Shown here: in pieces, positions 6,896-62,609 of the stretch | Position numbering within the stretch: position 1 is the first letter of the stretch | Layout of the letters: every line of letters starts with the position of its first letter | Virus record (IMG/VR): IMGVR_UViG_3300028888_000107 | Coordinates: 14,598-78,597 of that record | Direction: 5' to 3' (one strand) | Origin: a virus | Taxonomy: Duplodnaviria > Caudoviricetes | DNA length: 64,000 nucleotides | The notes under the pieces: model-generated | Database searches by the model: none | Told to the model about the DNA's origin: nothing | Seen by the model: only the letters and a program-made list of their open reading frames with translations | Position numbers and translations under genes: made by a program

Positions 6896-7828
6896 CTATT
6901 TGTTGTCTAACACGTAATCACTTGTTCCTAAAGTGTGTGGAAGTTTATCGACATAACAATCATAAGCCACTTTTGAAACAATGTTTTTTAACTTGTTTTT
7001 GTATGTTGTCATTTTATTGTTTATCCATCTTTTAAACCCATCGTATGATTTAAACTTATTGTTTGATAATTTGTTTGCGTATTTAAGAATAAGTTCTTTG
7101 TGTTTGTCATCTTTCACTTCTAAAAATTGTTCGCACCAGCAAAATACAAGTTTGTAATTTTTGTAAAAGTTAGTTCTTTTTATGTATTCCAACACATCGT
7201 TTACAGATAGAAAAGTTCCATCATATTCCAAAAGTTCGCCTTTTATTGTTCCTATAAACGCATTTCTTTCAAAATCAACAAGCATATACATAACGCTGCC
7301 GACCATTTTTTCTATTGGGTCATTATTGTTTGTCATTTCAAAATAACCCAAATCCTTTGCAACTTTTTCAAGTGTGTTTCCTTGTTTTCTTAAATTATAA
7401 TCTTCATAGGCGTGTTGAAGTTCGTGCATTAATGTACCCAAGTTGACACTTTTTTTGTTTAGTTGAATTTGTATGCTTTGAAATTTTTCACTATTTTTTA
7501 ATGTTTTGGTTTTTGAAAAAGCATAGCCCGTTAACCCATCTTCTGTTATGACCAATATAATATTTTTGGTAAAGTTACATTCAGGTGTGTGTACGTTTAT
7601 TGTTTTGTCGGATGAACTTTTTGCAATGTTTAACAATTTCCAAGCCAATGCTTCACAATTGTTGAAAACACCATGTTTTTCAAGTATTTTGTTTTTGTTA
7701 AACCTGTTCTCATTGGAATAATAAAATTGTCTATTTTCATCTCCACAATAAAATTCTATAAACAAATGAGGTTCTAATATATTATTATAATTTATTAAAA
7801 ATTCATCAAATTTTAAAATTTTATTCAT
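6896..7828 (-). CDS. putative zincin (HExxH) metallopeptidase with capsid-targeting-like leader
   Basis: TLMHELQHAYED plus FERNAF; N-terminus MNKILKFDEFL. Confidence 0.65.
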   Translation of the reverse strand: MNKILKFDEFLINYNNILEPHLFIEFYCGDENRQFYYSNENRFNKNKILEKHGVFNNCEALAWKLLNIAKSSSDKTINVHTPECNFTKNIILVITEDGLTGYAFSKTKTLKNSEKFQSIQIQLNKKSVNLGTLMHELQHAYEDYNLRKQGNTLEKVAKDLGYFEMTNNNDPIEKMVGSVMYMLVDFERNAFIGTIKGELLEYDGTFLSVNDVLEYIKRTNFYKNYKLVFCWCEQFLEVKDDKHKELILKYANKLSNNKFKSYDGFKRWINNKMTTYKNKLKNIVSKVAYDCYVDKLPHTLGTSDYVLDNK

Positions 7829-7839
7829 TTATGCGTTGT

Positions 7840-8815
7840 TTATATTTTTGAATTTATGTAATTTGTCATAGCTGTGGAATCCGCAAACCCTTTTGACATT
7901 TTTTCCGAAAACACTTCGTATGCCATTTTTGGTATAATTGTGTTAAACTTTCTTTTGTAGGAATACAACATGGCATTCAACCATCTTTTAACATCTTTAT
8001 ATTCCATAAAATAGAAATTTGTAATTTTGCCCAAATAATTCAAAACCTTTATCTTATCCTCTTTGTTTTTTATTTCCAAAAATTCGTTTGTCCACTCAAA
8101 CGCATCTTCGTATTGCTGGTAAAAACCCGTGCTTTTTATAAAATCGCAAACAGAATTTATTGTTGTAAACTTTTTCGGGGATTCCATAAGTTCCCCATAT
8201 ATGGAATTTATGTATGCGTTTCTTTCAAAGGATGTGTACAAATAAACCAATTTGTAAAGTTTGCGTTCCATTGTGTTTGATGGTTTGGAAAGGTTTACCA
8301 TTAGTTTTTTGTAGCCAATTTTTTCCAATTTTTTATCGGTGCTTGAACCTTTTTTTCTTAATTCACAATCCTCTTTTGCGTGTTGAAGTTCGTGCATAAT
8401 AACCGATAATTTTAACTTGTCTTTTGATGAAATTATTATTGTTATTTCATCAAACAAACCTTCGTTTTGGTTAAACACAGACTCGTTATAGGCATAGGCG
8501 GCAACCCCAAAAACATCTTCATCATATTCAACAATAACCTTTTTTGCCACATTGTTGGCGGGCATTTCTATTGTTATTGTTGAATGGTTTTTTAGTTCAA
8601 CACCTTTTGCCTTTTTTATAATTTCTTCGGACATTTCCAAGCATTTGTCAAAAATGCCGTATTTTTCAAAAAGCGTAGTTGTTGATGTCAAGGACTCACC
8701 AATATATAGAAAATTTCGGTTTTCATCACCGTAATAAAATTCTATAAAAAGGTGAGATAAAAAAACTATTGCCAGATGCTTTTTCATATTCTTCAAAACT
8801 TAAAATTCTTCCCAT
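7840..8815 (-). CDS. putative zincin metallopeptidase paralog; leader exon out of frame at a T7 run
   Basis: VIMHELQHAKED plus FERNAY; ATG 8815 encodes MGRILSFEEYEKASGNSF, which joins the main frame if one base of A7 (8759-8765) is removed; internal ATG at 8787. Confidence 0.65.
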
Positions 8816-8829
8816 AACCAAATTTGGTT

Positions 8830-9216
8830 CTACAAAAACAATAGAATGACCAATTTGTCAAAAACATCCGAGTTACGCAGAACAACCTTGCAATAGTCGC
8901 AAGTGTAAACACCGTTTTCATAGCAAGGCTCACAAACCGCAAAACCTTTTTCTTTGAAAATGTATTGTGTGCGAACAATGGTGTCGTTAAGCAACACGGT
9001 TTTTTCCTTTGCAATGTTAAAGTTTGAAGTGTATTGCTTTCCGTTTTCAAAAAGTGTAAGTGTAAAGACATCGGTTGTGTCGTTAAATGTAACATCAACC
9101 ATTCTTTCAACACTTATGAACTCACCGCCAGCATAACCCTTTACAATGGCGGGTGTTTGGGCGTTTGCCAAAAGGCAAATTGTCATTAAAGCCAATAAGT
9201 TAAAAAATCTTTTCAT
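8830..9216 (-). CDS. exported protein with signal peptide
   Basis: MKRFFNLLALMTICLLANAQ, a Bacteroidota-type signal peptide ending A-Q. Confidence 0.65.
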   Translation of the reverse strand: MKRFFNLLALMTICLLANAQTPAIVKGYAGGEFISVERMVDVTFNDTTDVFTLTLFENGKQYTSNFNIAKEKTVLLNDTIVRTQYIFKEKGFAVCEPCYENGVYTCDYCKVVLRNSDVFDKLVILLFL

Positions 9217-11948: not shown

Positions 11949-12158
11949 ATGAAAACTACAATTTGGGTTGCAAGGGATATGAGTGGCGAACTTAACTTTT
12001 TTAAGTCCGAACCAAAAGAGTATATTGGCGGTACCTTTTACCACAAAAGCATTTTGCGTATTGGCGAATACCTTGCCGATAAGTACAAATGGGTCACCTA
12101 TGAAATGTCCCCTGTTGAATTAAACCTTTCCATTACAAAAAAGAAAAAAGGTGTATAA
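11949..12158 (+). CDS. hypothetical protein
   Basis: 69-aa ORF (WVARD..G.L..F...P), operon spacing. Confidence 0.6.
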   Translation: MKTTIWVARDMSGELNFFKSEPKEYIGGTFYHKSILRIGEYLADKYKWVTYEMSPVELNLSITKKKKGV

Positions 12159-12179
12159 ATACTAAAAACAAATATTGCT

Positions 12180-12677
12180 ATGCACATTTTTAGAATAAAC
12201 GAAATGTATTCCGTCCATCCAGAAAACTTGGGTGAATTTAGGGAATACCTTATGCAAAACGGTTACGAAATTGAAGAAAGGGAAACAAACCACGAATACA
12301 GGGGCAGTAAGAAAGGCATTATGATATGTGTAAAGGATAAAAAAAGACCCAACTACACCATTTGCTTTGATTTTACATCCGATAAACCCAATGCGTATGA
12401 ATTTTTGTATTTTGTTGAAAAGGATGGTGAAAAAGACAACTTCTTTTACATAGGAAGCACAATGGAAATAGAATACGTTAAGGATTTGAACCTTTTGCTT
12501 GATGTGAAGGGAACATATAAAAAGTATTTTGTGGATTATAGAAAAAAGATGTTAAAGAAAGCGGAAGCCGCTTACAAAAGGGATGTTATGAAAAACGGAC
12601 GCTTTGCTTCCGATTATGATTTGGAAATAGCACGTGAAAAACTTAAATTGGCTGAACAAAAATATAATAATATATAA
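12180..12677 (+). CDS. hypothetical protein with capsid-targeting-like leader
   Basis: MHIFRINEM; late promoter 12154-12161. Confidence 0.65.
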   Translation: MHIFRINEMYSVHPENLGEFREYLMQNGYEIEERETNHEYRGSKKGIMICVKDKKRPNYTICFDFTSDKPNAYEFLYFVEKDGEKDNFFYIGSTMEIEYVKDLNLLLDVKGTYKKYFVDYRKKMLKKAEAAYKRDVMKNGRFASDYDLEIAREKLKLAEQKYNNI

Positions 12678-12685: not shown

Positions 12686-13336
12686 ATAACACATATTAAA
12701 AGAATAAATGAAATGCATCCAAGCACTTATTTAAGTGCTGCAGATAAAAGAGAGGCGCAAATAAAACAAACACCAAAAGAGTTAAGAAAAAATTTGCCAA
12801 AACATATATTGGAATCACCTAAAAAATTAAGGTCACATGCACAAAAAATGGACAAAACCCCCAAAGTTTATGAATTAATTACACGCTCTAATGAAAGTCT
12901 TACAAGATTTAGTTGTGATTATAATGAATTTGAATGGGTTGATAAAAGCAGATGGATTAATTATATGGCAAGCACTTATGAAGCGTGCTATTTAACAAAA
13001 GATGATATTAAAGAAGTTAAAAATAATAAAGAAAATAGTGATATAAAATATAAGTTTAACGAAAATTCACTTAAAGACAATGTTGAATACCCATTTGTTT
13101 TGGTTGATGGTGGTGGATGGAATAATACTTGCTATATGTTATTACTTGACATTGAAAGTGCCACACCAGATGAATGGGAGTATGACACCGAAGTTGTAAA
13201 ATTTATAGCAACAAAATACCAATTATATGATGGAATTATAGATTTTAGTCTCCTTGACGATGGTTCTAATGAAGATGAAGTAAAAGAGGCTGAACAAAAT
13301 TGGGATAATATGATACACAGATTAATGAAAAAATAA
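12686..13336 (+). CDS. hypothetical protein; leader begins at ATA (first ATG at 12713)
   Basis: In-frame ATA-ACA-CAT-ATT-AAA-AGA-ATA-AAT-GAA-ATG = (I)THIKRINEM, matching MTHIKKINEM of 41101-41400. Confidence 0.6.
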   Translation: MTHIKRINEMHPSTYLSAADKREAQIKQTPKELRKNLPKHILESPKKLRSHAQKMDKTPKVYELITRSNESLTRFSCDYNEFEWVDKSRWINYMASTYEACYLTKDDIKEVKNNKENSDIKYKFNENSLKDNVEYPFVLVDGGGWNNTCYMLLLDIESATPDEWEYDTEVVKFIATKYQLYDGIIDFSLLDDGSNEDEVKEAEQNWDNMIHRLMKK

Positions 13337-15022: not shown

Positions 15023-16102
15023 CTATTGGTTGTTAAGTTCGTTGGAAAGTTTTTCAGAAAGTTCCTTTAAGGTTTCGTTTATTTCATTTCTTTTCCTTTC
15101 ACCCTCATCGTGTATCCTTTTGTACTCGTTCATTGTGTCAATAAGGGATTGTGTGGTTTTCCTTAAAGTATCCGCACTAACAACGCTTTCTTCGTTTGCC
15201 TTTGCCACGTTAATGGTGTTCATTTTCAAAAGTTCGGCATTTCTAACAAGTATTTCGTTTGTGGCATTGGACGCCATTCGTTGAACCTCAATGTTGTTCC
15301 TTTGGTTTTGCATTGTTACCGATATGCTTAATTGGTTCTTCCAAATGGGGATAACGGTGTTCACAATGTTATCGGACTTTTGGGCAATCATATTGTTGCT
15401 GTTTTGCAACGCCCGTATTTGCAAAAGGTCTTGCCCCATAATATACTCGGTAACTTTCATATCGGTTATCCTTTTTTGAAGGGCTTCCCTAAACGCATAC
15501 ATATCCTGCAACATATAGGGTTCGGTATCGGGGTTGTTTTCCATATCGGCTATGGTGTTGCCCAATTCCTTTTCCTTTAGCATTGCCGCAATAATTAGTT
15601 CACGCATACGCTTTACATAGGAAACATTGTTGTCAAAAATGATTTGCAATGTTCCGTTATCCTTTAGGGCGATAAGTTTTGTTGCGGTAATCTTCTTTGC
15701 CACATCATCAACATTATCGGCAATGTTGTTAAACTTAACAAGGTTGGTTTTGTACCTTTTTATAAGTTTTTTGATTAGGGGTATTTGCCTAATAAACTTA
15801 ATAAAGGAGTTTTCCTCGTTTAGTTTGTCAAGGTCAATATCGTTTAACCCCACCAAAAGGTTGTTAATAATGTTGCAAGCATCTTCGGTGGTTTCGCTGT
15901 TTGACTTGGTAATACGCAAAAGGTCATCACCGTTTTTTCTTACAATTTGGGAAAGGTCGCTACCATAGGTTTGTATGGAGTTGATGTCGTTTTCCCTTAT
16001 GCTTTTGGCAATGGTTGTTAGTTTTTTAAGTTCCTTTTCGTCCATATTGGCTATGCTTTTGTCATAGTCATAGGACTTAATTGCAACGTTGTTGTTTTCC
16101 AT
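15023..16102 (-). CDS. telA: toxic anion resistance protein (TelA/KlaA family)
   Basis: Helical 359-aa protein; IQTYGSDLSQ, IRALQNSNNMIAQK, TVIPIWKNQLSI, NATNEILVRNAELLK pattern. Confidence 0.8.
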   Translation of the reverse strand: MENNNVAIKSYDYDKSIANMDEKELKKLTTIAKSIRENDINSIQTYGSDLSQIVRKNGDDLLRITKSNSETTEDACNIINNLLVGLNDIDLDKLNEENSFIKFIRQIPLIKKLIKRYKTNLVKFNNIADNVDDVAKKITATKLIALKDNGTLQIIFDNNVSYVKRMRELIIAAMLKEKELGNTIADMENNPDTEPYMLQDMYAFREALQKRITDMKVTEYIMGQDLLQIRALQNSNNMIAQKSDNIVNTVIPIWKNQLSISVTMQNQRNNIEVQRMASNATNEILVRNAELLKMNTINVAKANEESVVSADTLRKTTQSLIDTMNEYKRIHDEGERKRNEINETLKELSEKLSNELNNQ

Positions 16103-19824: not shown

Positions 19825-20286
19825 TTAGTTATATCTTCTTTCGTACATCCCTTTAGGTGCTTCAAGAGCTAACCCTTTTTCTATCAAACCATTGTAATCA
19901 AGATGACTTTTGTTGTAAAATTGCACCATTTCGTACGTCCTTTTCGCAACTGCTTTTTGAAGAAGATGTCTTCTTTCATTATCGTCTTTTATTTGTTGGA
20001 CTTTTTTGACCAAAGTTTCTAAAAATTCACTCTCTATATCTGAAAAAACTTTTTGTTCATCCTCTGTCATACTTGACATCGGACGTAGATAGGGAATATA
20101 GTTATCCGAATAAGTGGAACCCATTTCATCCGTGAAATAGAAATTACCGTCTTCAAACATTCCAGACAATTTCATATCTTCTTCCACTAATCTACCATCC
20201 TTCTTATGTACAACACTACATATTACCCTATAAGGAAACATTGCGCATAAGAGTTTATTTAAAAGTTCTTTTTCTTCTTTATTCAT
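19825..20286 (-). CDS. phage family protein (EEKE.L.K.LC...PYLRPMSSMT...HLDYNGLI..GLALEAP.GMY)
   Basis: Paralog of 21993-22388 and of both ends of 24377-25051. Confidence 0.75.
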   Translation of the reverse strand: MNKEEKELLNKLLCAMFPYRVICSVVHKKDGRLVEEDMKLSGMFEDGNFYFTDEMGSTYSDNYIPYLRPMSSMTEDEQKVFSDIESEFLETLVKKVQQIKDDNERRHLLQKAVAKRTYEMVQFYNKSHLDYNGLIEKGLALEAPKGMYERRYN

Positions 20287-45365: not shown

Positions 45366-45380
45366 ACTGTATATATAATA

Positions 45381-45410: not shown

Positions 45411-45438
45411 ATTTTTTAAATTATTGATATTAAATATA

Positions 45439-46106: not shown

Positions 46107-46188
46107 GTTTATAGGTAAATTTGCCTATAAACTGTTTATAAGCGATAAAACTTATAAATTGTGATTATAAGTGAATACGCTTATAGTT
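46107..46188. repeat. three tandem palindromes TATA(A/G)G-N8-C(C/T)TATA
   Basis: GTTTATAGG-N8-CCTATAAAC (46107-46132), GTTTATAAG-N8-CTTATAAAT (46134-46159), GATTATAAG-N8-CTTATAGTT (46163-46188). Confidence 0.85.
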
Positions 46189-46999: not shown

Positions 47000-47028
47000 A
47001 TTTGTTGCTTTTGGTTACTAAATATAGT

Positions 47029-48297: not shown

Positions 48298-48317
48298 CTG
48301 TTTTTGTGTTGTGTATT

Positions 48318-49034
48318 TTAATATAAGTTCCAATATTCGTACCAATTTAAATCCCTGCAATAAAGTTGCATTATAACATCCGTAAATGTTATGTCCTTGT
48401 ATGTTTCGGAAAATGAAACAAATTTATCTTCGTGAAATTCAAATTCATTGGTTTTCTTGTTTTTTATATAACCAGTTCTATTATCAAAATACCACACCTC
48501 TTTAAAGTAATATGTTAGGGGTGCTATGGATGGTATCATTTGCGAATCACCGCTAACCATTAGTTTTCTTTCGCTTTTGGTTGTGTGGTTAACAATTCTT
48601 GAACATTTGTGGTTGTACCTGTTAAGCAATCTGTACGATGGTGTTTCCATAAAGTTTTCATTAAACAACTTCATATATCCACCGCTTATGGTTTCGTTAT
48701 CGTTAAAACAAGTTATGGTGTATTCAGGTTCCTTGTTTGGAAAAAGATATGATAAATCTCCTGTTTCCAAAATTAAAGGAACCAAATGAAAATCGTTTTG
48801 GCTAAAGCCAAACCTTATAAGTTCATCCACAAGCGGCAACACATATTTATAGGTGTATTCGGTTGTGTAATGGTGTTCGTTACCGGGCATGTTTGAATAC
48901 AGCACATCTTTATCCTTAAAAATGGGAAGTTTGTGAATATCTCTCCCAGAATTATCATACTTGACGCCATACACTTTGTTACGATATGGAAAACAAATGT
49001 ATTTTGCCATTTTTAATATGTTTTCCCTTTCCAT
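48318..49034 (-). CDS. putative SGNH/DHHW (AlgX-like) O-acyltransferase
   Basis: NEHHY and KLMVSGDSQMIPSIAPL..YFKEV..FDNR; start coupled to upstream stop (TAATG). Confidence 0.45.
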   Translation of the reverse strand: MERENILKMAKYICFPYRNKVYGVKYDNSGRDIHKLPIFKDKDVLYSNMPGNEHHYTTEYTYKYVLPLVDELIRFGFSQNDFHLVPLILETGDLSYLFPNKEPEYTITCFNDNETISGGYMKLFNENFMETPSYRLLNRYNHKCSRIVNHTTKSERKLMVSGDSQMIPSIAPLTYYFKEVWYFDNRTGYIKNKKTNEFEFHEDKFVSFSETYKDITFTDVIMQLYCRDLNWYEYWNLY

Positions 49035-51499
49035 TAGAAACTTGTTATATTTATCATATCGCCCCAATACAAACTTGTTTCATAATCCCTGCATCCAAAA
49101 ATTCCACCGTTTGGGGTAAATGTTAGTTCACCAAGATACAATTTATCATTAACTATATAAAAGTCAACCCTTACAAAATCAAAATCTTTTGATAACTTTC
49201 TTGAATAGTCAAGCATTTCATCAAGATTCACTGGCTTTTTATCCAAGTTGTTAAAGTCTTGCCTTGCACAACTCCAACCTATATCAAAGGTGTTCCAATC
49301 GGTATCGTATATGTTTTCGTGCAAATTGTTTGAATACCTATCCGATATTACCATTATCATTTTTGGTTCGCCATTGCAGCACCAAACCTTGTAATCCACA
49401 AGCGATTCGTTTCCATCATCCATAAAAACTTCCGAATAGCATTTTGGTTCAATTAGTGCGTAATGCCATTGGTAATATTTATCCCCAAAGTTTGTGTCAA
49501 GCCAAGTGTTTAAAAAATCAACACAATCTTTTCTTGTGTTTATTTTTCGGTTTTTAATGTTTAAAAATTCATTGTTTTTGTTATCCGTGCAAATAATGTT
49601 CATGGCGTAACCGTGGTTACATTTTAAAACATATTTGTTTGGCAATTTATCGAAATTAATATCTTCTGGTTTGTTGTAAACATCAATTATGGGGACGCAA
49701 ATATCCTTTCCAAGTTTTTTGATGCTGTAATCGTGCAACAATATTTTATCGGCACATTTAGCCTTTAGCATTTTGTTTTTGTCATACACCATTAGCCAAT
49801 GCAACTTATCTTGAACCGTTTTGGGGTTTTCAAAATCTATTTGTAAGTTGAAACGGCTTTTGCTTGCCCTGTTTTTTAAAAAGTCTTCAATGTCCTTATC
49901 GGTTGCGTTTTTTAGGTTTGTTATGTTTTTACATATACCATCATCCTTTTTTATTTCGGTAAAGTCGTTTACAACAAAATCGGAAATGCGGTTTGCATAA
50001 ACCGAGTAATCGGTTTTTTTCACCATTTTAACAGTGTTTTTTCTTAACTCGCTATCAAAGTTTGTTTTTTTATCTTGGGTAAGAGAATTTTCGTGTATTC
50101 TTCTATCAAACAATATTCGTTGGTCTTCATATAGTTTGCAATCGGTGTATCTTATTCTTCGCATAAAGTCGGCATCTCCACCGCAACGCCAATCCCTGTA
50201 TCCACCAAGTTCGCAAAACACGCTTTTTTCAAACAAAACCACACCATAACTCATTCCATAGGGTTTTTCTATCTTGCAATTTCCAAAGTTTTCAAACCCA
50301 AACCTTATAAAATTGTATTGCGTTGCATTCTCCATAATGCTTGATATGGTGTAAGGTCTCATTTTGTCATCGCTATCAAACCTTAAAATCCAATCATACT
50401 TGGCTTCCTTTATAATGGTGTTGCTCGTAACATAAGTTCCCTTGTTGCTATCCATCATTAAAACACGCAAGTTTTTGTACTTGTGCATTATTTCCTTCAT
50501 TTTCAAAAGAGTTCTTTCACAACCATCAATACCTACAATAACTTCCCAATTGTTGTGTGTTTTAAACCAAGTTTGTTCGGCAACACTATCAAGACACTCC
50601 TCAATAAAGTCTTGCGATTTGTATGCAGTTATGCAAACACTAATTCCTTCTGTTGGCTTTTCGTTTACTACAGCCACCTTGCTTTCTTCAAACTTAACTT
50701 TTTCAACTTTTCCCGCAAACAAATCGGTTAAATACCTTTCTTTTTCTTCGGTTCTTTTGTTGTACTTAAAAAAGTGTTCAATGCTTAACCTATCATTTCC
50801 TATACCACCTCCTCTTCTTTTCTTTTTTATCATATAGTACTCATCCGCACTTTTGGTTGCGTAATGAGCAATATACGCCTTGCTGTGGTTATATGTATCC
50901 GAGGTTACAAAAGTTGAATACGTTGCGTATTTTCCATCGCAATCAACAACATCACCCCTAATGTTAGAATAGTGTACGTTTATTGCCTTAAACCCCGTTA
51001 ACTTTGTTTTGTAAAAATGCTTTTTGTAATAAGATAAAGTTTCATCTTCACACACTCTTGTAAACCTTTCCCTTACCGGCAAGCATTCGTAATGAAGGTT
51101 GTCATTATCGTCATAGCATTTCCAATTTAGCCTTACGCTTTTTGTGCTTGGCTTGGTTATATCCTTTATATATCCACAAACATTTTCATAGCCGTTTAAT
51201 ACCAAAAATTCATCAACGTCCAAGTAAAGAACCCAATCATATTTACCGCCAAACCTTTGGTAAAAATCATTGTATGACGCAATTTGTGTTTCACACCCCT
51301 TTTGCTTTTTTCCTATAAAATATTTTAAAACGGTAACATTTGGGTTTTCTTTTCCAACAACGTCTTCACACTTTTCACCATCCGTATCGTTGTTATCATA
51401 TATGTATATGTGGTCAAAACCAAGATTTAAGTGATGGTTAATCCATTCGGATAGGTAAAGGTTTTCACATTTGGCAATACAACAAAGGGCAATCTTCAT
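49034..51499 (-). CDS. tri-domain GT-A glycosyltransferase (GT92/GT2-like) + GT2 + TupA-like ATP-grasp
   Basis: EWINHHLNLGFDHIYIYDN..YLDVDEF; ISVCITAY...VGIDG...RFDSDD; KYVLKCNHGY...FVRVDFY...LGELTFTP. Confidence 0.85.
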   Translation of the reverse strand: MKIALCCIAKCENLYLSEWINHHLNLGFDHIYIYDNNDTDGEKCEDVVGKENPNVTVLKYFIGKKQKGCETQIASYNDFYQRFGGKYDWVLYLDVDEFLVLNGYENVCGYIKDITKPSTKSVRLNWKCYDDNDNLHYECLPVRERFTRVCEDETLSYYKKHFYKTKLTGFKAINVHYSNIRGDVVDCDGKYATYSTFVTSDTYNHSKAYIAHYATKSADEYYMIKKKRRGGGIGNDRLSIEHFFKYNKRTEEKERYLTDLFAGKVEKVKFEESKVAVVNEKPTEGISVCITAYKSQDFIEECLDSVAEQTWFKTHNNWEVIVGIDGCERTLLKMKEIMHKYKNLRVLMMDSNKGTYVTSNTIIKEAKYDWILRFDSDDKMRPYTISSIMENATQYNFIRFGFENFGNCKIEKPYGMSYGVVLFEKSVFCELGGYRDWRCGGDADFMRRIRYTDCKLYEDQRILFDRRIHENSLTQDKKTNFDSELRKNTVKMVKKTDYSVYANRISDFVVNDFTEIKKDDGICKNITNLKNATDKDIEDFLKNRASKSRFNLQIDFENPKTVQDKLHWLMVYDKNKMLKAKCADKILLHDYSIKKLGKDICVPIIDVYNKPEDINFDKLPNKYVLKCNHGYAMNIICTDNKNNEFLNIKNRKINTRKDCVDFLNTWLDTNFGDKYYQWHYALIEPKCYSEVFMDDGNESLVDYKVWCCNGEPKMIMVISDRYSNNLHENIYDTDWNTFDIGWSCARQDFNNLDKKPVNLDEMLDYSRKLSKDFDFVRVDFYIVNDKLYLGELTFTPNGGIFGCRDYETSLYWGDMINITSF

Positions 51500-53783: not shown

Positions 53784-55475
53784 ATGGCAGGTTATATAAA
53801 AACAAGAAAAGACCCAAGGACTGGAAACCAAAGAAACATTGTTTCAAAGACATTAAGAAATTTGTCCAATCTTGGAATGAACTTTGATAACAAAATATTC
53901 AAAAACTCGCACGCCATAGGTTTGTACGAGATAGACCCAATGCAGAAAAACACTAACAAATTCGTGTACGAAGATAGTGTTTACGACATCTTTAACGGGT
54001 TTAGTTTTACCGATTCATCAATGCACAAAAACATATCCCTTTACGATAGGGTGTATGATGAGGGAAAACGAATGGCTTTACGAAGATTGGCGGTGCAAGA
54101 TGAAATAGAAGAAATACTTGACATAGTTTGCGATGAGTGCATTTGCTACAACCAAAACGGTTTGTTTAGCGAACTTTTGTACAACCCAATGCTTATAGAT
54201 GAGAAAAAGAAAGAGGAAATGAACAATGTGTTTAACGACATATACGCATACTTCGGCTTTTACGACCAAAACATGGCTTGGGGTTACTTTAGGAAATTCC
54301 TTGTGGATGGGTTCCTTGCCTTTGAAATACTTTACAACACGGATGGCAACGAAGACGTTGGCAAGCAAAAGCACATAATAGGTTTCCAAGAATTGGATAC
54401 CCTATCTCTAATCCCCGCAATAGATGAAAAAACGGGTGAAAAGATTTGGATACAATACAAGGATGACCCAGTAAGACAAAGGGTGCTTTACGATTCCCAA
54501 ATCATTTACATAAGTTATTCACAATTTGATAGTGCAACAAGAATTTCCTATGTGGAAAGGCTAACAAGGGCGTTTAACCTTTTGAGGATTATGGAAAGCA
54601 CAAGAATTATTTGGGCGGTTTCCAATGCAAGTTTTAAAACAATGTTCACCATACCGGTTGAAAACAACAGCAACAGGGGAAGGCAAACATTGGCTGAAAC
54701 AATGCACAGTTATCGTGAAATTGTTGACTTTAACTGGGAAAGCGGTGAAATTATGACAAACGGAAAACCAATGATGCCCTTTAACAAAGAATATTGGTTT
54801 CCAAATGTAAACGGTGAAAGCCCGCAAGTAAGCACACTTGGCGGTGACGGGCCAGATTTGGCTGATACCGAAGCCCTTAAATACTTCAAAATGAAACTTT
54901 GGCAAGCCAGTAAGGTTCCTTTTTCAAGGTTTGATGTTGACCAAGGCAGGGGACAATATGCAATGACAACCGAATCAATGCAAAGGGAAGAAGTAAAATT
55001 TGCCAACTTTATAAACAGGTTAAGGTCAATATTTAAGGAAATCCTTATAAAACCCATTTACATACAATTGTGCTTGTTGCACCAAGAATATGTAAACGAT
55101 ACCAACTTTAGAAACACGCTCGCATTAAAGTATGTTAATGATAACGTGTTTACCGAAAAGCGTGAAATAGAACTTATCCAACAAAAGGCTGATTTTATTG
55201 GCAGCATTATGCAAACCTTTGTAACACAAGATTCCGAAGGCAACGAACAACCCTATTGGGATTTGGATTATCTAATAAGAAGGTTTGGCGGTTTTACGAA
55301 TGAAGACCTTGAAAACAACGCAAGGATACAAGAAATAAAAAAACTTGTTAAGGAAGGCTACAAAGAAAAAGATGCCGAAAAAATAGCGGATGGCGAAGAC
55401 CCCTCCAAATTTAAAAAAGAGAAAAAGGAAGAAGAAGGCGAAGAGGAAGAAGGCGGTGACAACTTAACACTTTAG
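53784..55475 (+). CDS. gp20: portal protein (T4 gp20-like)
   Basis: EIEEILDIVCDE, FRKFLVDG, SYVERL...NLLRIME...IW, KEYWFP..NG...VSTL.G, YFKMKLWQASKVPFSR, REEVKFANFINRLR. Confidence 0.95.
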   Translation: MAGYIKTRKDPRTGNQRNIVSKTLRNLSNLGMNFDNKIFKNSHAIGLYEIDPMQKNTNKFVYEDSVYDIFNGFSFTDSSMHKNISLYDRVYDEGKRMALRRLAVQDEIEEILDIVCDECICYNQNGLFSELLYNPMLIDEKKKEEMNNVFNDIYAYFGFYDQNMAWGYFRKFLVDGFLAFEILYNTDGNEDVGKQKHIIGFQELDTLSLIPAIDEKTGEKIWIQYKDDPVRQRVLYDSQIIYISYSQFDSATRISYVERLTRAFNLLRIMESTRIIWAVSNASFKTMFTIPVENNSNRGRQTLAETMHSYREIVDFNWESGEIMTNGKPMMPFNKEYWFPNVNGESPQVSTLGGDGPDLADTEALKYFKMKLWQASKVPFSRFDVDQGRGQYAMTTESMQREEVKFANFINRLRSIFKEILIKPIYIQLCLLHQEYVNDTNFRNTLALKYVNDNVFTEKREIELIQQKADFIGSIMQTFVTQDSEGNEQPYWDLDYLIRRFGGFTNEDLENNARIQEIKKLVKEGYKEKDAEKIADGEDPSKFKKEKKEEEGEEEEGGDNLTL

Positions 55476-55490: not shown

Positions 55491-55802
55491 ATGAACAGAA
55501 TAAAAAGATTTGACGATTTTGTAAACGAAAGCCTGTACCCTATGAATGTTGTTGACAACATTTTTAAGGAAAACGGGTACAATGTTTCTGGTTATTGGTC
55601 ACACAGTGATGATGAAAACCTTGATTGGAAAGAATATACCAAAAAAACAAGCGAAACCCAAAAATATGTTGATTTGACAAAGTTTAGAATAGCAATAAGC
55701 GCAAAAGGCAAACTTACATGTTGGGATATGCAAAGGGATAAGGAATCAAACTATGTTGAAATTTCTGTTCCTGAATTGAAAGAACTTTTGAAACAATATT
55801 AA
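55491..55802 (+). CDS. hypothetical protein with capsid-targeting-like leader
   Basis: MNRIKRFDDFVNES. Confidence 0.7.
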   Translation: MNRIKRFDDFVNESLYPMNVVDNIFKENGYNVSGYWSHSDDENLDWKEYTKKTSETQKYVDLTKFRIAISAKGKLTCWDMQRDKESNYVEISVPELKELLKQY

Positions 55803-55811: not shown

Positions 55812-58800
55812 ATGCCGGTACCAACCATAAAAGACCTTTTTACCCCCATAAATTCCATAAGCACGTGCTTGGAATCAAAAGCGGCTGTGATTAGCAAGAA
55901 CCTTGTTGATATAAACAACAGTATCACCGGTGCGGCTACCACATTGGGAGAAAAGTCAAAATCCATAAAGGATTCCATTGATGATGCAAAAAAGGATATT
56001 ATAAAATCCCTAAAGGATTTAAGCAACACAAAAGTCGGAAAACCAAAACAAGAAAAAAATGCAAAAAACATTGAAAAACTATCAAAAGAATTTTCATCAA
56101 ACCTTGCAACCGGTATAGCATCAACAATACAACAAGCAAGCGCGGCAATAAGCGGGGGTATCTCGGAATTGGGGATGGGTGTTGCCCAAGCAACACAAAT
56201 ACTTGTTGAAATAAACAAAAGCCTTGACAAAACAAATGTTCAATTAAAATCGGAAAAAAGAAGAGAAAGAAGGGAAGAAAGAAAATTAAGAAAAAACCTA
56301 ACAACAGGAAAGCAAACTTTGGAAATGCCCGAAATAAAGGGCAGCGATGATATAGGAAAAAGTGTAGCCAACATAGCAAAAGCCGTTGAAGCCGTTGGTA
56401 ACGTTAAGTTAAAAGATATTATACTTTTTAAGTCAAAACTTAAAAAGATGATACGAGGCATTGTTGAACCAATAAAAGAATACAACGAAAACCTTAAACC
56501 CGGTGAGGGTGTTAAAATAGCCAAAGACATAGAAGAACTTGGAAGTTCCCTATCGTCTTTTGTTAGGGATATGTCCAAAACAACATTAAGGGGTGTTATA
56601 GCATCCAAATTTGTTGGCAAAGACCCTAAAGAATCACCATTAAACAAGTTACTCGGCTCAGCCACATACGCAGTTTTAACCAATGTTTACGGCGCACGTT
56701 ACAATGAAAAAACGGGAAAATACACGGGAATTAACAAAAGGCAAGCAGAATACCTTAAAGATTCTGGAATAATTTTAAACAACCTCGGAACAAACATACT
56801 TAAGTTTAACGCAAAAATGGCATTGGCTGCCGTGCTTGCACCGGTTGCCTTGGCGGGTGCAAAAATGTTTTCTTGGGAAATGCCTTTGCTTCGTAAATCC
56901 ATAAACAAACTTATGGGCAGAAACAAGAACTACAAGGCGGAGGAAATGAAATATATAGCAGCCGGCAGGGTTCTTGATAAAATAGGAACAAGCATATTGT
57001 TATTTAATGCCAAATTAACGTTAAGTGCTGTATTGGCTATTCCCGCAATGGTTGGAATGGGTTTGTTTGCGTTGCTTTTATTGGAAACAAGAGGAGTGTT
57101 TGCATATCTTGGAAACAAAAAAGTTAGAAAGGCGTTTAGAAGAGGTGCAAGAACACTTGACATGATAACCGGTGCAATACTTGGTTTTGAAGCATCTATG
57201 GTATTAAGCATTGTTTTGGCACCGTTTGCCATGATGGGACTTGCTTTATCAACACCTATTATGCTTGGCGCAAATGCCATGTTCGGTATAATTGGTCAAC
57301 GAAGAAATGTAAAAAATGTATTAAGCGCAAGTGCCGCAATAACATTAATGGGATTATCCATAATTGCATTCTCCGCATCCATGCTTGTTACAACGATGAT
57401 TACAAAAAGAATTATAACAGGCGGTGGTGATAAAGTTGACCCAACAAATTTGGTTGCTCTTGCATCCGTTGTTCCAATAGTGGGACTTATGCTTGGCGGA
57501 CATGCTTTAATGGGAATGATGGGCAAACCGCAATCGGTTAAAGATTCGCTTAATTCATTTGTTTCTATAACACTAATGTCGGCGGGTCTTGTTGTATTTT
57601 CTTTGGGTATGCTTGTTGCAACAGCAATAACCAAAAATATGTGGAAAACAAGCGGTGGCAAATTTGATACCATTTCCATGATTACATCGGTTTCTGTGTT
57701 TGGTTTAATGTTTGTTGGTTCAAAAGTGTTCCAAATGGCTGGACAAGACCTTAAAGGTGTTGCCAAAGGTCTTGCCTCTGTTACCCTGATGTCAATAGGT
57801 TTGGGAATTTTTGGGTTTGGTTTAAGTTTTTATTCAAAATCAACCAAAGACTTAAAAACCAAAGACATTGTAGCAATGCCGTTACTGCTTGCCGGTTTTG
57901 CGGTTGAATTTGGAATAATGGGTGCGACTGTTGAATTTATTGCACTTGGCGGTGCTGCGGCTGCCGCAATGGGTGTTGGTGTTGGCGCATTTGGACTTGG
58001 ATTAAAATCATATTCGGAAAGCATTAAGGATGTTTCCAAAGACGATGTCATAAGAATGGCAAAGATAATAGGTCTTTATGGAGTTGAATTTGCAGGCATT
58101 GGACTTATTTCGCACGCCATATTAGGTGCTGACTTGGCATTTGCCGCAATGGGGGGTTCTTTGTTATCATTTGGAAAAGGTCTTTCCATTTATATGGATA
58201 GTATTAAAGGTTATGATGAAGAACAATTAAAACTATCAAGAAGCCATATAGGAAAACTTGGCGGTGAATTTGCTTTGCTTGGACTGGCATCACCTGCCAT
58301 ACTTGCAGCAGGTGTTGCAACAACAACAATAGGTGCTGGCTTGGCTTCTTTGGGAAAAGGAATGAAGTCTTGGAAAGATGTGGGTGGAGTTTCCGATGAT
58401 GAACTTGCCAATCTTTGCAAAACCGTTGACGCAGTTAAATTGGCGTTTATGGGAAGTGTTGATGAAAACGGCAAACCAAAAAAAGTTGGCGGCTTAAAAG
58501 GATTGTTAAAGAGTGTAACCGGTGCCATTGCTGCTCCATTTAACTTGGCAGCTGTTGTTGAAACCGCAACCAGTTTAACAGTAGCGAGCGGTGCCATAGT
58601 TCATATTGCAAAAGCATTAAAATTCTGGGAAGAATCCAACATTAACATAGATAGTGTAACCAACCTTACAACAGTTATGGCTTCTATGAACGAAGCGTTT
58701 GGCAAAATGGCTGGAAAATCAAACGGTGGAGAAAAAGGTTTGCTCGGCAAACTTATAGGTTTGGACTTTTCTGTATTTTCACCAACCGATGTTGAACTTG

Positions 58801-60926
58801 GAATTCGTTCAACAAAGAATATGGGCAAAGCGTTGAAAAACATTGCCGAAGGTGTTGTTGCGTTTAGAGATGGCATAGGTAAAGAATTTACCGATAAAAA
58901 GAAAGCGGAAGAACTTGGTGTAGCAATAACAAATGTTATAACACCTATTGCCAACGGTTTTGCAGCATTGGAAGGTCTTGAACCTTATGAAAACCAAAGA
59001 AAAAAAGGATTGCTTGGAAACATAATAACAGGATTTATTGGAGAACTTGGTTCACCAGCAGGCAAAACGAAAATAGCAACAGGTATAAAGAGTGTTAAGG
59101 ATTTGGGCAAAACACTTAAAAACCTTGCGGAAGGTGTTAAGGAATTTGCAACCCTTATACCTAAAAACGCAAGGGCTTCTTGGTTAAAAGATGTTGGTGA
59201 TAACATAGCAGCTGTATTAACTGCACTTCAAGGTCCTCTTGTTGCATTGGGTACAAGCGAAGCCGAATTAACCCAAATGGTTGCCCAAACAACCAACATA
59301 GGAACATCAATGGAAAGTGTGTACACTTCTATGGGTGATGTTTCCAAGATATCAATGAAACAAAGTAGTGCAAAAGCAGGTGTTGAAGCAATAAAGGGAT
59401 TGGGAGAAACTCTTGTCGGCATAGCAAACGCAACCAAAACATTTTCCGAAATATCACTTAAACAAATTGGCAAGAGCGGTACTTGGAATGAAAATTGGGA
59501 AATTGTAGAAAATGGTGAAGGTGCTTTGGGTGCTATGACAGCAGTACTTTGCAGCCAATTTGCATTGTTTAGCAAACTTGGTGTTACCGTTAAGGAAACA
59601 GGTACATACAAAGAAACCAAAAAAGAAGGAAACATATTTAACAGAAAAGTTTCCACAACATCCAAATCATACATAGGAATGGCAATTGATTCCATTTCCA
59701 ATCTTGGTGCAACGGTAAGCGACATTGGGGATGCCCTTAAAAAATTCAGCAGCAATGAATGGAAAGATGGCGCAATAGCCGGAGCAAGCGATGCCTTTAG
59801 AACAATATTATCATTTACAGAAGCGTTTGGAACACTTGGCTATGTTATGCTAAATGGTACGTCATACAAGCAACAATTTAACGCATTGTCATCAAAAGGA
59901 TGGAATCAAGAAGTTGTGTCCAAATTTGGAACAATATCCGGCTCAACCGGATTGCTTCTAAAATATTCGGAAGCATTAACAAAAGGTTCCGATTTAATAA
60001 AGGGTGTTGTTACATCATACAATGATGTGTTTGTTAAAACAAACAACAACATTGACATTTTAAAGAAATTTTATGATAAACCGGAATATATGATGTACCC
60101 CGTGTACAATGTTTTGGAAATGTCAAGAATTTTGGCGACAACCAATGAAGAAGAAGTTCACATGATTGACAACAAGGGAAAATATGTAATGTTGGGTAAA
60201 CTAAAACTAACATCACAAACCTTGGATAACGCAATAGCAAACACAAGCAAACTTAAAGAAATAGCAACCAACATTACAACAGCTGTTTCAAAATTGCCAT
60301 CACAAACAACAAACGCAAGGGGTGCAAAGGAAATGAAATCGGCAATTAGCAACCTAACCGATGGTTTTAAAGAAATAGAAACACTAAAACCAATCACAAC
60401 AACTTCCTTTGATAACCTTGTTCGCAGTATGTCCAAATCGTTAAGGGTATTGGATGGAAAAGGAAAATCTTTGGATAAAGCAACCAAACTTGTTGATAGA
60501 CTTATTGTGGCAAAAAAGAACAACGTATTTGGCGATTTAAGCAGGAACACGCAAAACATAGCAAACGCAATTAACAATTTGTCAAAAGACAACCTAAAAC
60601 CTTATTCCGAACTAATAGCCGCTTTGGGTAAAATGAGCGAGCGTGATAGCAAGTACAAAGAGTTGTTTGATGACATTATTAACCTTTTGAAAAAAATGAA
60701 TGCCGAACTCGCCAAAAGAAACGAAGGCGGTGAAGGTGGTGAAGGTGGTGATAAAACAGAAAAAGGCGGTACAGGTGGTAAAGGTAAATCTACAGGTAAG
60801 AAAAACGAACCTCAAACACAACCACATCAGCAACCCATTAACATACCTGATTACACCCAAAAACTTGACCTAATTAAAGAGGCTATTGATAAAGTTAAAA
60901 ACGCAATAAATAACAAAACATCTTAA
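55812..60926 (+). CDS. tail tape measure protein
   Basis: 1704 aa, long Ala/Gly/Leu-rich amphipathic and hydrophobic helical repeats, located among structural genes. Confidence 0.75.
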   Translation: MPVPTIKDLFTPINSISTCLESKAAVISKNLVDINNSITGAATTLGEKSKSIKDSIDDAKKDIIKSLKDLSNTKVGKPKQEKNAKNIEKLSKEFSSNLATGIASTIQQASAAISGGISELGMGVAQATQILVEINKSLDKTNVQLKSEKRRERREERKLRKNLTTGKQTLEMPEIKGSDDIGKSVANIAKAVEAVGNVKLKDIILFKSKLKKMIRGIVEPIKEYNENLKPGEGVKIAKDIEELGSSLSSFVRDMSKTTLRGVIASKFVGKDPKESPLNKLLGSATYAVLTNVYGARYNEKTGKYTGINKRQAEYLKDSGIILNNLGTNILKFNAKMALAAVLAPVALAGAKMFSWEMPLLRKSINKLMGRNKNYKAEEMKYIAAGRVLDKIGTSILLFNAKLTLSAVLAIPAMVGMGLFALLLLETRGVFAYLGNKKVRKAFRRGARTLDMITGAILGFEASMVLSIVLAPFAMMGLALSTPIMLGANAMFGIIGQRRNVKNVLSASAAITLMGLSIIAFSASMLVTTMITKRIITGGGDKVDPTNLVALASVVPIVGLMLGGHALMGMMGKPQSVKDSLNSFVSITLMSAGLVVFSLGMLVATAITKNMWKTSGGKFDTISMITSVSVFGLMFVGSKVFQMAGQDLKGVAKGLASVTLMSIGLGIFGFGLSFYSKSTKDLKTKDIVAMPLLLAGFAVEFGIMGATVEFIALGGAAAAAMGVGVGAFGLGLKSYSESIKDVSKDDVIRMAKIIGLYGVEFAGIGLISHAILGADLAFAAMGGSLLSFGKGLSIYMDSIKGYDEEQLKLSRSHIGKLGGEFALLGLASPAILAAGVATTTIGAGLASLGKGMKSWKDVGGVSDDELANLCKTVDAVKLAFMGSVDENGKPKKVGGLKGLLKSVTGAIAAPFNLAAVVETATSLTVASGAIVHIAKALKFWEESNINIDSVTNLTTVMASMNEAFGKMAGKSNGGEKGLLGKLIGLDFSVFSPTDVELGIRSTKNMGKALKNIAEGVVAFRDGIGKEFTDKKKAEELGVAITNVITPIANGFAALEGLEPYENQRKKGLLGNIITGFIGELGSPAGKTKIATGIKSVKDLGKTLKNLAEGVKEFATLIPKNARASWLKDVGDNIAAVLTALQGPLVALGTSEAELTQMVAQTTNIGTSMESVYTSMGDVSKISMKQSSAKAGVEAIKGLGETLVGIANATKTFSEISLKQIGKSGTWNENWEIVENGEGALGAMTAVLCSQFALFSKLGVTVKETGTYKETKKEGNIFNRKVSTTSKSYIGMAIDSISNLGATVSDIGDALKKFSSNEWKDGAIAGASDAFRTILSFTEAFGTLGYVMLNGTSYKQQFNALSSKGWNQEVVSKFGTISGSTGLLLKYSEALTKGSDLIKGVVTSYNDVFVKTNNNIDILKKFYDKPEYMMYPVYNVLEMSRILATTNEEEVHMIDNKGKYVMLGKLKLTSQTLDNAIANTSKLKEIATNITTAVSKLPSQTTNARGAKEMKSAISNLTDGFKEIETLKPITTTSFDNLVRSMSKSLRVLDGKGKSLDKATKLVDRLIVAKKNNVFGDLSRNTQNIANAINNLSKDNLKPYSELIAALGKMSERDSKYKELFDDIINLLKKMNAELAKRNEGGEGGEGGDKTEKGGTGGKGKSTGKKNEPQTQPHQQPINIPDYTQKLDLIKEAIDKVKNAINNKTS

Positions 60927-60955
60927 TAGCACATAAATACTAAAAATTTGTTGTT

Positions 60956-61621
60956 ATGACCTTTATAGGAATAGATTTCTCAATTAACTCACCAAGCATT
61001 TGCATAAACAAGGACGACAACCTATCGTTTGTTTCCTTTTTTAACACAAACGGAGATGATTGGAACAGGGCAACCCCTCTTAAAAAGTACACATACCATA
61101 ACGAACTAAAGGACGTTGTTAAAATGGTTCCCTATGAAAGAAACGGCTACAAACCCATTGGCACTTATTCGGATTATTCAACCGAACAAATGTCAAAGAT
61201 GCAAGATGCCGTTTTAATAGCCAACCTTATAACAAACGAAATAGCGACAAACACCATCGGCTTTCCCAAAATAGCAATAGAAGGGTTTGCATACGGTAGC
61301 AAAGGAATGTCCTTTATTGACCTTATATTGTTCAACTCCTTTTTAAGAAAAAACATTGTGGAGTTGTTTGGGGTGGAAAACCTTGTTGTAATATCGCCAA
61401 AGGAGGCAAAAAAGTTTGCGGGTAACGGTAATGCCGATAAAGAATATATGATAGGCGAGTTTATTAAAAACTCACACAACGATGAAGCATTGAACAATTC
61501 CGAATTTCATAGATATATAAAGAATATATCCATAGATTACAAAAACATAAAACCAATAGATGACCTTGTGGATGCCTATTGGATTATGAAAACCTCAAAA
61601 GAAAAATATTTTGGCAAATGA
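60956..61621 (+). CDS. ruvC: RuvC-like Holliday junction resolvase
   Basis: IGIDFSINSP, IAIEGFAYGS, SPKEAKKFAGNGNADKEYM, DDLVDAY. Confidence 0.8.
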   Translation: MTFIGIDFSINSPSICINKDDNLSFVSFFNTNGDDWNRATPLKKYTYHNELKDVVKMVPYERNGYKPIGTYSDYSTEQMSKMQDAVLIANLITNEIATNTIGFPKIAIEGFAYGSKGMSFIDLILFNSFLRKNIVELFGVENLVVISPKEAKKFAGNGNADKEYMIGEFIKNSHNDEALNNSEFHRYIKNISIDYKNIKPIDDLVDAYWIMKTSKEKYFGK

Positions 61622-62316
61622 TAGGAATAGTTGAAGATAATTTTGACCCTTTGGAAGAAGGAAGATTAAAGGTACGCATATTCGGTCTTACCGATAAAAA
61701 AGATGAAAACGGTGATTACATTATACCCACATCTTGTCTTCCTTGGGCAAGGTCCGGTTGCATAAACAGCTCGGGTGCTTTTTCAGTTCCCAAAATAGGT
61801 TCGTATGTGTATATAAACGCAGGTGACATTTACAACCCCATTTGGACGGGAATGGTTTATCTAAACAACGATGCCAAAATGGAAATAGGGGATGACAAAA
61901 ACGCACACACCCTTGTTTACGATACCGATTTCTCAAACGGTGAAGAAAACAATTACAGGGAAGGCGAACACATAAAAATTTATTTTAGCGAAAACAAAGG
62001 TGTTGTTATAGATTACAAAACTTGTTCCGGTGGTTCCTATTTTAATATGACACCAAACGGGGATATTAAAATGATGGATGGTAACGGTGACTCCATAATA
62101 CTATCAAACGGGACCATTACCATAAAAAGCGATAACAAAATAAAAATAGACGCACCTTGCATTGAACTTGGACAAGATGCCGTGGAGGGCGTGCTTAAAT
62201 CGGAAAGTTTTAGAAAACTTTTTGAAAAGCATACCCACATGTACGAGAGCGGTCAAACAACACCCCCGATTGAGGGTATGAACCCAAATGTAATAAACAA
62301 AAAAATTCTTGTTTAA
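61618..62316 (+). CDS. baseplate central spike (gp5 OB-fold/VgrG-like, no lysozyme domain)
   Basis: GIVEDNFDPLEEGRLKVRIFG...LPWA...FSVPKIGSYV; C-terminal HTH (His-Thr-His) tip motif. Confidence 0.8.
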   Translation: MIGIVEDNFDPLEEGRLKVRIFGLTDKKDENGDYIIPTSCLPWARSGCINSSGAFSVPKIGSYVYINAGDIYNPIWTGMVYLNNDAKMEIGDDKNAHTLVYDTDFSNGEENNYREGEHIKIYFSENKGVVIDYKTCSGGSYFNMTPNGDIKMMDGNGDSIILSNGTITIKSDNKIKIDAPCIELGQDAVEGVLKSESFRKLFEKHTHMYESGQTTPPIEGMNPNVINKKILV

Positions 62317-62609
62317 AGTTTGCCAAAGATTTTTCTTGTGTAAATTACTTGTGGCAAAATCCTCATAGTTGAATTGCCCGGCAACAAATGCTTTTCATTA
62401 TTCTTGCCATTCCATAACCCAACAAGTTCATCAAGGCTTATTGTGTAGCCGTTGGTATATGCCAATTCCATAAACTCCATATCGGTCATTGTGTCATCCA
62501 CAACACCTTCAACAATAAAAACCCTGTATTCATCATCGGCAAGTTCGGTTGTTGTATCCACAAACTTTGCCATTTCGTTTATAAACTCATTGTAGTTTTT
62601 TACTAACAT
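62313..62609 (-). CDS. hypothetical protein with capsid-targeting-like leader
   Basis: MLVKNYNEFINEM; late promoter 62628-62635. Confidence 0.7.
   Translation of the reverse strand: MLVKNYNEFINEMAKFVDTTTELADDEYRVFIVEGVVDDTMTDMEFMELAYTNGYTISLDELVGLWNGKNNEKHLLPGNSTMRILPQVIYTRKIFGKL

Follow-up and report, generated by a model that had tools for sequence, protein, structure and literature searches.

Why do otherwise dissimilar proteins of one phage begin with nearly the same short peptide? The question is raised by a 64-kb stretch of DNA (the window), part of a 78.6-kb viral contig (IMGVR_UViG_3300028888_000107; CheckV completeness 33%). A sequence-only reading had noticed 11 proteins with such an N-terminal leader in the window and had proposed a T4-like capsid-targeting leader on a large, dispersed and swappable set of late proteins, injected as candidate anti-defence or host-takeover effectors. 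All comparative tests supported the leader and the set of proteins that bears it, while the injected effector role is suggested by analogy with T4. The sequence comparisons make it probable that the shared leader is a greatly expanded T4-type capsid-targeting system. The phage belongs to the uncultured giant phages of Bacteroidota and is related to T4.

The nearest large relative is IMGVR_UViG_3300031998_000001 (G001; 387 kb, 93% complete), with a portal identity of 69%. The capsid protein was 44% identical to that of LR756500, an uncultured 462-kb 'huge phage' with a guanine-plus-cytosine (GC) content of 24%, 32% to those of the Lak megaphages of Prevotella, 31% to that of the cultured Sphingomonas phage PAU (NC_019521), and 30% to that of the Tenacibaculum phage PTm1.

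The leader and the genes that carry it

A position matrix was built solely from the 11 leaders of the window and applied, with a threshold of at least 10 bits, to the independent genome G001. Matches were found at 42 of the 541 N-termini, compared with 2 of 2400 internal positions chosen at random and 1 of 2041 methionines inside proteins; the scan of relatives that the sequence-only reading had proposed thus showed the leader to be enriched at N-termini. Leaders were counted on 10 of 106 proteins of the window's own contig, 46 of 541 in G001, 30 of 681 in LR756500 and 21 of 294 in PAU, with 0 to 2 in the internal controls. This amounts to about 9% of the genes on the contig (about 1 in 11) and about 8% in G001, or 40-50 proteins per genome. 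Of 2.9 million viral contigs searched for a strict HIK-type DNA pattern, only about 13 large ones had it.

The logo of the leader is M-[VTIA]-H-I-K-[RK]-hydrophobic-[ND]-E-[MF]; in many leaders [IV]-x-E plus a small residue comes next. Identical leader peptides were encoded by differing synonymous codons, and one leader peptide was retained across genomes of 35% and 49% GC, which indicates that selection acts on the peptide. The proposed division into two subtypes was statistically real (His at -4 with Met at +3, p=3e-6), and intermediates exist. Phe or Tyr at +3 was associated with a second [IV]-x-E site (p=7e-7): the F/Y subtype reads Y/F-x-E/D-F-[IV]-x-E plus a small residue, and the H...M subtype keeps only the first hydrophobic-x-E. 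A hydrophobic-x-E was retained in 55 of the 57 leaders from the window and G001. Where the first acidic position held Asp, Gln or Asn, a second hydrophobic-x-E was present in 7 of 9 leaders, compared with 13 of the 48 remaining leaders (p=0.006), as one would predict for leaders that a Glu-specific protease has to cut at one point or another. Across three genome sets, a hydrophobic-x-E lay within the first 18 residues of 106 of 108 leader proteins, versus about 40% of all genes.

All 11 N-termini had been read correctly from the sequence, with caveats for those at 8815 (reading frame) and 12686 (ATA codon). The leader genes of the window, together with one open reading frame (ORF) that contains a leader-like segment internally, are:

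6896-7828, minus strand: cargo gene, 310 amino acids, leader MNKILKFDEF; HELQH-AYE at residues 135-142
7840-8815, minus strand: paralogue of 6896-7828, leader MGRILSFEEY starting at 8815; body ORF 7840-8796, HELQH at residue 135
12180-12677, plus strand: cargo gene, 165 amino acids, leader MHIFRINEM; exact TATAAATA at 12154-12161; no Pfam or PHROG match
12686-13336, plus strand: cargo gene, leader codons (I)THIKRINEM; ATA replaces ATG, and the next ATG (12713) comes right after INE
29742-30386, minus strand: cargo gene, 214 amino acids, leader MSRILKLNEYMVE-G; no homologue in G001
30403-31320, minus strand: 305-amino-acid ORF with internal leader-like VYILKIDEFIKE at residues 157-168 (nucleotides 30817-30852)
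31334-31777, minus strand: cargo gene, 147 amino acids, leader MSHIKKINEI
31793-32392, minus strand: cargo gene, 199 amino acids, leader MKRIMLFEEFV; match to phrog_2563 (unknown function) from residue 60
32407-33015, minus strand: cargo gene, 202 amino acids, leader MKKLSSFSQFIGE-S; exact TATAAATA at 33034-33041
41101-41400, minus strand: cargo gene, 99 amino acids, leader MTHIKKINEM; exact TATAAATA at 41420-41427
55491-55802, plus strand: leader gene directly after the portal gene, 103 amino acids, leader MNRIKRFDDFVNE-S; position of T4 prohead-core genes 67/68
62313-62609, minus strand: cargo gene, 98 amino acids, leader MLVKNYNEFINE-M; exact TATAAATA at 62628-62635

Because the genes that start at 7828 and 8815 are paralogues with 36% identity, the unrelated proteins number 10 and not 11 as first counted. 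The leader at 8815 and the body at 7840-8796 are in different frames, with the shift at a 7-base homopolymer (8759-8765), which a sequencing error, slippage or a pseudogene could explain. Either translation of the gene at 12686 starts at ATA, a rare start codon, or the leader has been lost naturally, and this copy may naturally produce a protein without the leader; its homologue P0037, 83% identical, has the normal Met start (MTHIKRINEM). In the 30403-31320 ORF, a 155-residue upstream segment is joined in frame to a leader gene, the Met of the leader having become Gly. The C-terminal half shows homology, beginning exactly at VYILKIDEFIKE, to a G001 protein that is tagged at its N-terminus. The ORF could encode two modules that meet at a protease site, or it could be a gene in decay.

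Two more leaders, MNRIKTYNQFVNE and MVHIKRINEMFE, were found on the same contig 5' of the window. The adjacency of leader genes on this contig was not significant (1 adjacent pair, p=0.58), and clustering was significant in G001, LR756500 and PAU. The window also holds a second, unrelated N-terminal family, M-x-x-EEK-x-LL-x-x-LC-x-R-x-PYG, on early-side genes (19825-20286, 21993-22388 and 24476-25051), with about 15 genes at 176-220 kb in G001. The members of this PYG-type family look like true paralogues rather than bearers of a tag.

Late-type boxes, head genes and sister lineages

Exact TATAAATA boxes were found 18 times in the window, compared with 6.0 +/- 2.5 expected. They include the four that had been noticed upstream of leader genes, which are present at 12154, 33034, 41420 and 62628, and others 5' of the capsid gene (38179, 38226), the portal gene (53744), and the tail-tube and adaptor genes. 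A TATAAATA-type box no more than 45 nucleotides upstream was present for 33 of 42 leader genes versus 90 of 499 other genes in G001 (p=1e-15), and for 8 of 11 versus 17 of 95 on the window's own contig. Early-type boxes on the contig (1 of 11 leader genes, 14 of 95 others) were not informative on whether leader genes avoid them. The TATAAATA-type boxes are likely read by a gp55-type sigma factor encoded in the window (40400-40774). Given the box enrichment, the boxes shared with head and tail genes, and this sigma factor, it is reasonable to infer, at the level of promoters, that the leader genes would be expressed late, alongside the head genes.

Other genes and promoter elements were observed in the window. 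An Hsp20/alpha-crystallin family protein (62913-63422, minus strand) has a TATATAAAA box upstream and adjoins a leader gene. A glycan operon preceded by a late box (46181-51499, minus strand) encodes an 821-amino-acid fusion of two glycosyltransferase domains and a TupA-like ATP-grasp protein. A repeated early-promoter-like cassette, ...GTTGCATATATAAAATATTT TTGTATTTTTGC... then GTAATTAAAAACA... ATG, creates spurious 'LYFC...' ORF extensions; it matches the TTG / TAnnTTTG promoter type of Bacteroidota, which supports a host in that phylum. Its copies are:

2079-2130, 26740-26790 and 28570-28620: early-promoter-like cassette
upstream of 25051, 27560 and 27804: early-promoter-like cassette

The head and late-transcription genes of the window are:

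36324-38075, minus strand: major capsid protein, T4 Gp23 family (Pfam Gp23, E=2.5e-33)
40400-40774, plus strand: late sigma factor, T4 gp55-type (phrog_234)
53784-55475, plus strand: portal protein, T4 Gp20 family (Pfam Portal_T4, E=1.3e-63)

Further genes of the window encode a gp32-type single-stranded-DNA-binding protein, a tail tube, a gp5-like baseplate hub and a gp13-like adaptor. The capsid protein begins MYSIQLNE-A, and the LNE-A and VNE-A that had been pointed out near its N-terminus were located at residues 6-9 and 49-52, respectively. The latter is a candidate maturation site, as judged from the sequence; its Glu is conserved across the clade.

Peptidase S77 (gp21-type) was detected above the Pfam cut-off in all of the complete or large relatives that were searched, namely G001, LR756500, PTm1, PAU, Lak-A1 and the relatives with 53% portal identity. 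The S77 domain is mostly N-terminal within a protein of 590-690 residues that bears a long coiled-coil-like C-terminal extension, and the fusion of PTm1 was named 'prohead core scaffolding protein and protease' by its depositors. A leader gene lies immediately 3' of the portal gene in the window (55491), G001 and PAU, where T4 has its prohead-core genes 67/68. In the window this portal-proximal leader gene is directly followed by a 1704-amino-acid ORF (55812-60926, plus strand) with no Pfam match; the G001 homologue of this ORF (35584-40338, 29% identity) is followed by two leader genes.

Four large DUF7487 proteins (34268-36238, 38291-40306, 41431-43128 and 43131-45449) flank the capsid and late-sigma genes. 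Since the protease gene adjoins the capsid gene in LR756500 and in the 53%-portal relatives, the DUF7487 genes look like insertions (homing-endonuclease-like) that split the head module. In the 53%-portal relatives, a leader protein of about 390 residues is encoded 3' of the capsid gene. It was considered as a gp24-like vertex protein and rejected, with no match in Pfam, and a profile search with it returned no homologue in G001, the window, PAU, PTm1, LR756500 or T4 gp23/gp24. G001 also carries eight paralogous DNA methyltransferase-like genes (N-terminal ...YNGDCLEVM...), several of them clustered round the portal gene:

G001 53996-54757, 257367-268185 and 282601-283401: methyltransferase-like genes

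The window-derived matrix found no leaders in PTm1 and PAU, and a matrix-free search for recurrent N-termini was then used. PAU proved to have its own leader, MKT-[LI]-x-x-L-[YF]-E-[AS]-K-L-N-E, on about 21 proteins (e.g., MKTLSKLYE-A/S-KLNE), including the annotated scaffold gp152 and both annotated 'internal capsid proteins', gp142 and gp154. As a sister lineage PAU is thus like the window phage in sharing one leader among many proteins, scaffold included, and unlike it in the leader sequence and in the concentration of leader genes in or near the head module, where they lie densely around the genes for portal, protease and capsid (e.g., NC_019521 106051-113735, loci L121-L131). No published description of the PAU leader was found in the searchable literature. 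In LR756500 (LR756500.1, loci L132-L155), MKYIKEYEEF-[LI]-N-E-[SA] was found on about 30 proteins; arrays at 11.7-17 kb, 180-201 kb and 312-318 kb hold as many as four neighbouring genes. For Prevotella phage Lak-A1 (MK250016, loci L199-L226), reading TAG as sense lifted the coding density from 66% to 91%. About nine of its proteins, or about 1.5% of genes, tentatively share the start MNK-x-IK-x-L-x-ESLFDDD, and several of these leader-like genes are only a few kb away from the gene for the S77 protease (189 kb).

Diversity and turnover of the cargo

After removal of the first 15 residues, the 57 leader proteins of the window's contig and G001 fell into 53 BLASTP clusters, and a G001 homologue was present for only 2 of the 11 window cargo genes despite the portal identity of 69%. 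The cargo is an unrelated, modular and fast-turning-over set. Leader proteins are 91-574 amino acids long and mostly globular-sized. No Pfam match was obtained for any of ten window cargo proteins (E<=0.01), and a Pfam scan of 44 G001 cargo proteins returned only nine families, with one member each and no recurring function. Named domains among the G001 cargo were WDGH and PRTase-like, and some cargo proteins looked coiled-coil or apolipoprotein-like. The GNAT-like enzyme listed earlier among the cargo was not recovered: neither Pfam nor PHROGs gave a GNAT match in the ten window cargo proteins at E<=0.01, a level at which remote homology is possible.

Two cargo families showed the leader to be gained and lost as a module. 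In the phrog_2563 family (31793-32392), the leader persists in homologues down to 49% identity and is missing in the four most distant. For the 6896-7828 protein, 19 homologues were found among 5.8 billion proteins; the leader was present on the 2 closest, and 16 more distant ones begin directly at the conserved body. Because only close homologues carry it in both families, the leader is an add-on of about 10 residues.

The paralogues 6896-7828 and 7840-8796 had been called HExxH peptidases. HELQH was indeed present at residue 135 in both, whereas a peptidase fold was not confirmed. Residues H135, E136, H139 and E142 (H-E-x-x-H-x-x-E) were invariant in 20 homologues of 6896-7828. The AF2 model of this protein had a pLDDT (predicted local distance difference test) of 76.7, with residues 1-42 (pLDDT below 50) disordered and outside the confident fold. 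Foldseek with the model gave nothing at E<=0.001, the weak best matches being lethal factor, MATCAP, 4l7a and astacin, and a wide VIA structural search was dominated by the C-terminal helical bundle and gave no significant match. It is the invariant HExxH-x-x-E motif that makes the pair candidate peptidases. Elsewhere in the window, a TelA-family (toxic anion resistance) protein is encoded at 15023-16102 on the minus strand (Pfam E=2e-62).

Probable capsid targeting and its rivals

In T4, no more than the first 10 residues of IPIII is required for packaging; targeting depends on leader residues 4 and 7, and processing on residues 8 and 10 (PMC9026906). The gp21 protease cuts after L/I-x-E, Asp at position 10 (P1) stops cutting but not targeting, and the core proteins are processed by the same protease (PMC9026906). 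The internal proteins of T-even phages are a diverse set with only the targeting sequence in common (PMC3012670). The T4 leaders (NC_000866) are MKTYQEFIAE for IPII and IPIII, MKTFKEF for IPI and MAKINELLRE for gp24. Their register, aromatic-x-acidic-aromatic-I/V-x-Glu, is kept in MLVKNYNEFINE-M and MNRIKRFDDFVNE-S of the window, in MVKKFSEFIAE-S of G001 and in MKRVKSYNEFIAE-S of the 53%-portal relatives; MLVKNYNEFINE-M (62609) is the window leader closest to T4 MKTYQEFIAE-A. Both systems place a short N-terminal tag on otherwise unrelated late proteins, with variable cargo and a conserved tag in which aromatic or hydrophobic residues spaced by three precede I/V-x-E plus a small residue, and they share the capsid protein, the portal, the late sigma factor, TATAAATA promoters and, in the relatives, the S77 protease. 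They differ in that the tagged genes here are dispersed genome-wide, with short arrays in addition, in that the tag is longer and has a conserved basic H-I-K-R head, with an ...I-N-E-M subtype that has no T4-like second site, and in that the protease of this clade is fused to a scaffold-like extension.

The phiKZ-like giant phages phiKZ, 201phi2-1 and SPN3US are also comparable. Their diverged gp21-type protease recognises a 3-residue motif and cleaves behind its Glu, and their heads contain dozens of internal proteins, of which some are ejected into the host (PMC5694885, PMC9026906). They differ in their propeptides, which are mostly long (>100 residues) with no single shared short tag, in their motif, S/A/G-x-E rather than hydrophobic-x-E, and in being a separate lineage with a virion RNA polymerase and an inner body.

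By the mechanism proposed for the window phage, the 10-14-residue tag would attach proteins made late to the scaffolding core while the prohead assembles, and the tagged proteins would become enclosed by the capsid shell. The gp21-type (Peptidase S77) protease with its scaffold-like extension would then cut after hydrophobic-x-Glu and free the cargo inside the head. We infer binding to the core, leader cleavage and presence in virions from the sequences and, more weakly, by analogy with T4 IPI and Alt, that part of the cargo may be ejected into the host with the DNA. Anti-defence or takeover roles of the cargo would follow by the same analogy, and some tagged proteins may be components of the core that serve assembly and are not delivered as effectors.

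Several points weigh against a capsid-targeting function. The 40-50 tagged proteins per genome contrast with a handful in T4, and the cargo has mixed isoelectric points (4.2-8.6), unlike the basic internal proteins of T4. In the HIK...INE-M subtype the residue behind the Glu, at P1', would be Met, Phe or Tyr, unlike the small residues after T4 sites, which makes the cut site uncertain. The matrix and regular expressions were set after the data had been viewed, although the main test used an independent genome. PTm1 had no convincing recurrent leader, by matrix or matrix-free search, despite its protease-scaffold fusion. The window's own contig has no prohead protease gene, which is uninformative because the contig is only a fragment. 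Finally, no virion proteomics was found for this clade.

An explanation close to the preferred one, and in our judgement an unlikely one, is that the leader does target the prohead, but that most of its bearers are assembly-only core or scaffold proteins, like T4 gp67, gp68 and gp22, which are degraded and expelled before DNA packaging and leave little or no payload. It fits the leader on the PAU scaffold, the leader genes that adjoin portal and protease genes, the coiled-coil or apolipoprotein-like cargo, and the processing of T4 core proteins by the same protease (PMC9026906). A conserved scaffold, however, does not resemble 40-50 unrelated, exchanged and mostly globular-sized proteins of 91-574 amino acids, some with an enzyme-like invariant HExxH or named domains (WDGH, PRTase-like), and assembly components are normally conserved, whereas only 2 of 11 cargo genes are shared at 69% portal identity. 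It is rather improbable that the leader addresses some other destination or partner, such as the lumen of the tail or baseplate, a site on a membrane, a compartment made by the phage, or a dedicated chaperone or protease that times their activity. The departure of the HIK...INE-M subtype from the T4 cut-site context would suit such a destination, and so would the gp5-like baseplate hub and the Hsp20-family chaperone encoded in the window. Against it stand the T4-like register of the critical residues, the PAU leader genes embedded in the head module, scaffold included, and the near-universal hydrophobic-x-Glu, which suits a Glu-specific S77 protease.

The leader might also be no functional peptide at all and reflect something in the nucleic acid or the translation of late genes, namely a 5' coding region that is A-rich and unstructured, or a downstream box, in a host that does not use Shine-Dalgarno sequences. 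Its codons are A/T-rich and lie at a fairly fixed distance behind late-type boxes, but this is very improbable given the synonymous variation within identical peptides, the one peptide across the 35% and 49% GC genomes, the conserved hydrophobic spacing, and the different lineage-specific peptides of PAU, LR756500 and Lak. Moreover, capsid, portal and tail genes have the same boxes and no leader, and the internal fused copy VYILKIDEFIKE retains the peptide. It is hardly credible that the tag is a recognition sequence for a modifying enzyme, e.g., a radical-SAM/SPASM maturase. G001 and LR756500 do encode radical-SAM proteins, but no such gene is present in PAU, with its 21 leader proteins, or on the window's contig, and the nearest leader gene is 7.6-41 kb away in LR756500 and 4.6 kb away (single copy) in G001, with no adjacency pattern. 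With neither co-occurrence in PAU and the window's contig nor adjacency in G001 and LR756500, a radical-SAM-linked tag of the RiPP type (ribosomally synthesized and post-translationally modified peptide) was rejected.

The capsid-targeting mechanism itself is already known from T4; new relative to the searchable literature are its scale (4-9% of genes), its dispersal, its division into two subtypes and the separate versions in different lineages of a branch of huge phages. PMC7824862, PMC13282480, PMC12880540 and the full-text searches, which mostly did not cover subscription journals, gave no description of such a leader in any jumbo or huge phage.

A broader proposal, which we hold tentatively and at somewhat less than even chances, is that throughout this branch (the present lineage, LR756500-type phages, PAU and perhaps Lak) 4-9% of genes, or about 1.5% in the tentative case of Lak, would encode capsid-loaded proteins addressed by a lineage-specific 'dialect' of the T4 peptide that co-evolves with the protease-scaffold fusion. 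If this is true, the tag alone would list, from sequence, the injected first-wave arsenal (anti-defence and takeover) of uncultured giant phages, and the ATG-to-ATA loss of a leader and the internal-leader fusion would show genes entering and leaving that arsenal. The lineage-specific tags and protease-scaffold fusions would form a natural data set for the recognition of the T4 targeting peptide, and the tag would serve, as it stands, as a label that directs foreign proteins into large capsids.

In the uncultured giant phages of Bacteroidota from the gut and the environment, about 90% of the genes lack a known function. Should the tag act as it does in T4, 40-50 capsid-travelling proteins per genome would be recognisable by a simple rule at the sequence level, and these would be the likeliest actors in the first seconds of infection, whether against restriction and other defences or in the takeover of the host.

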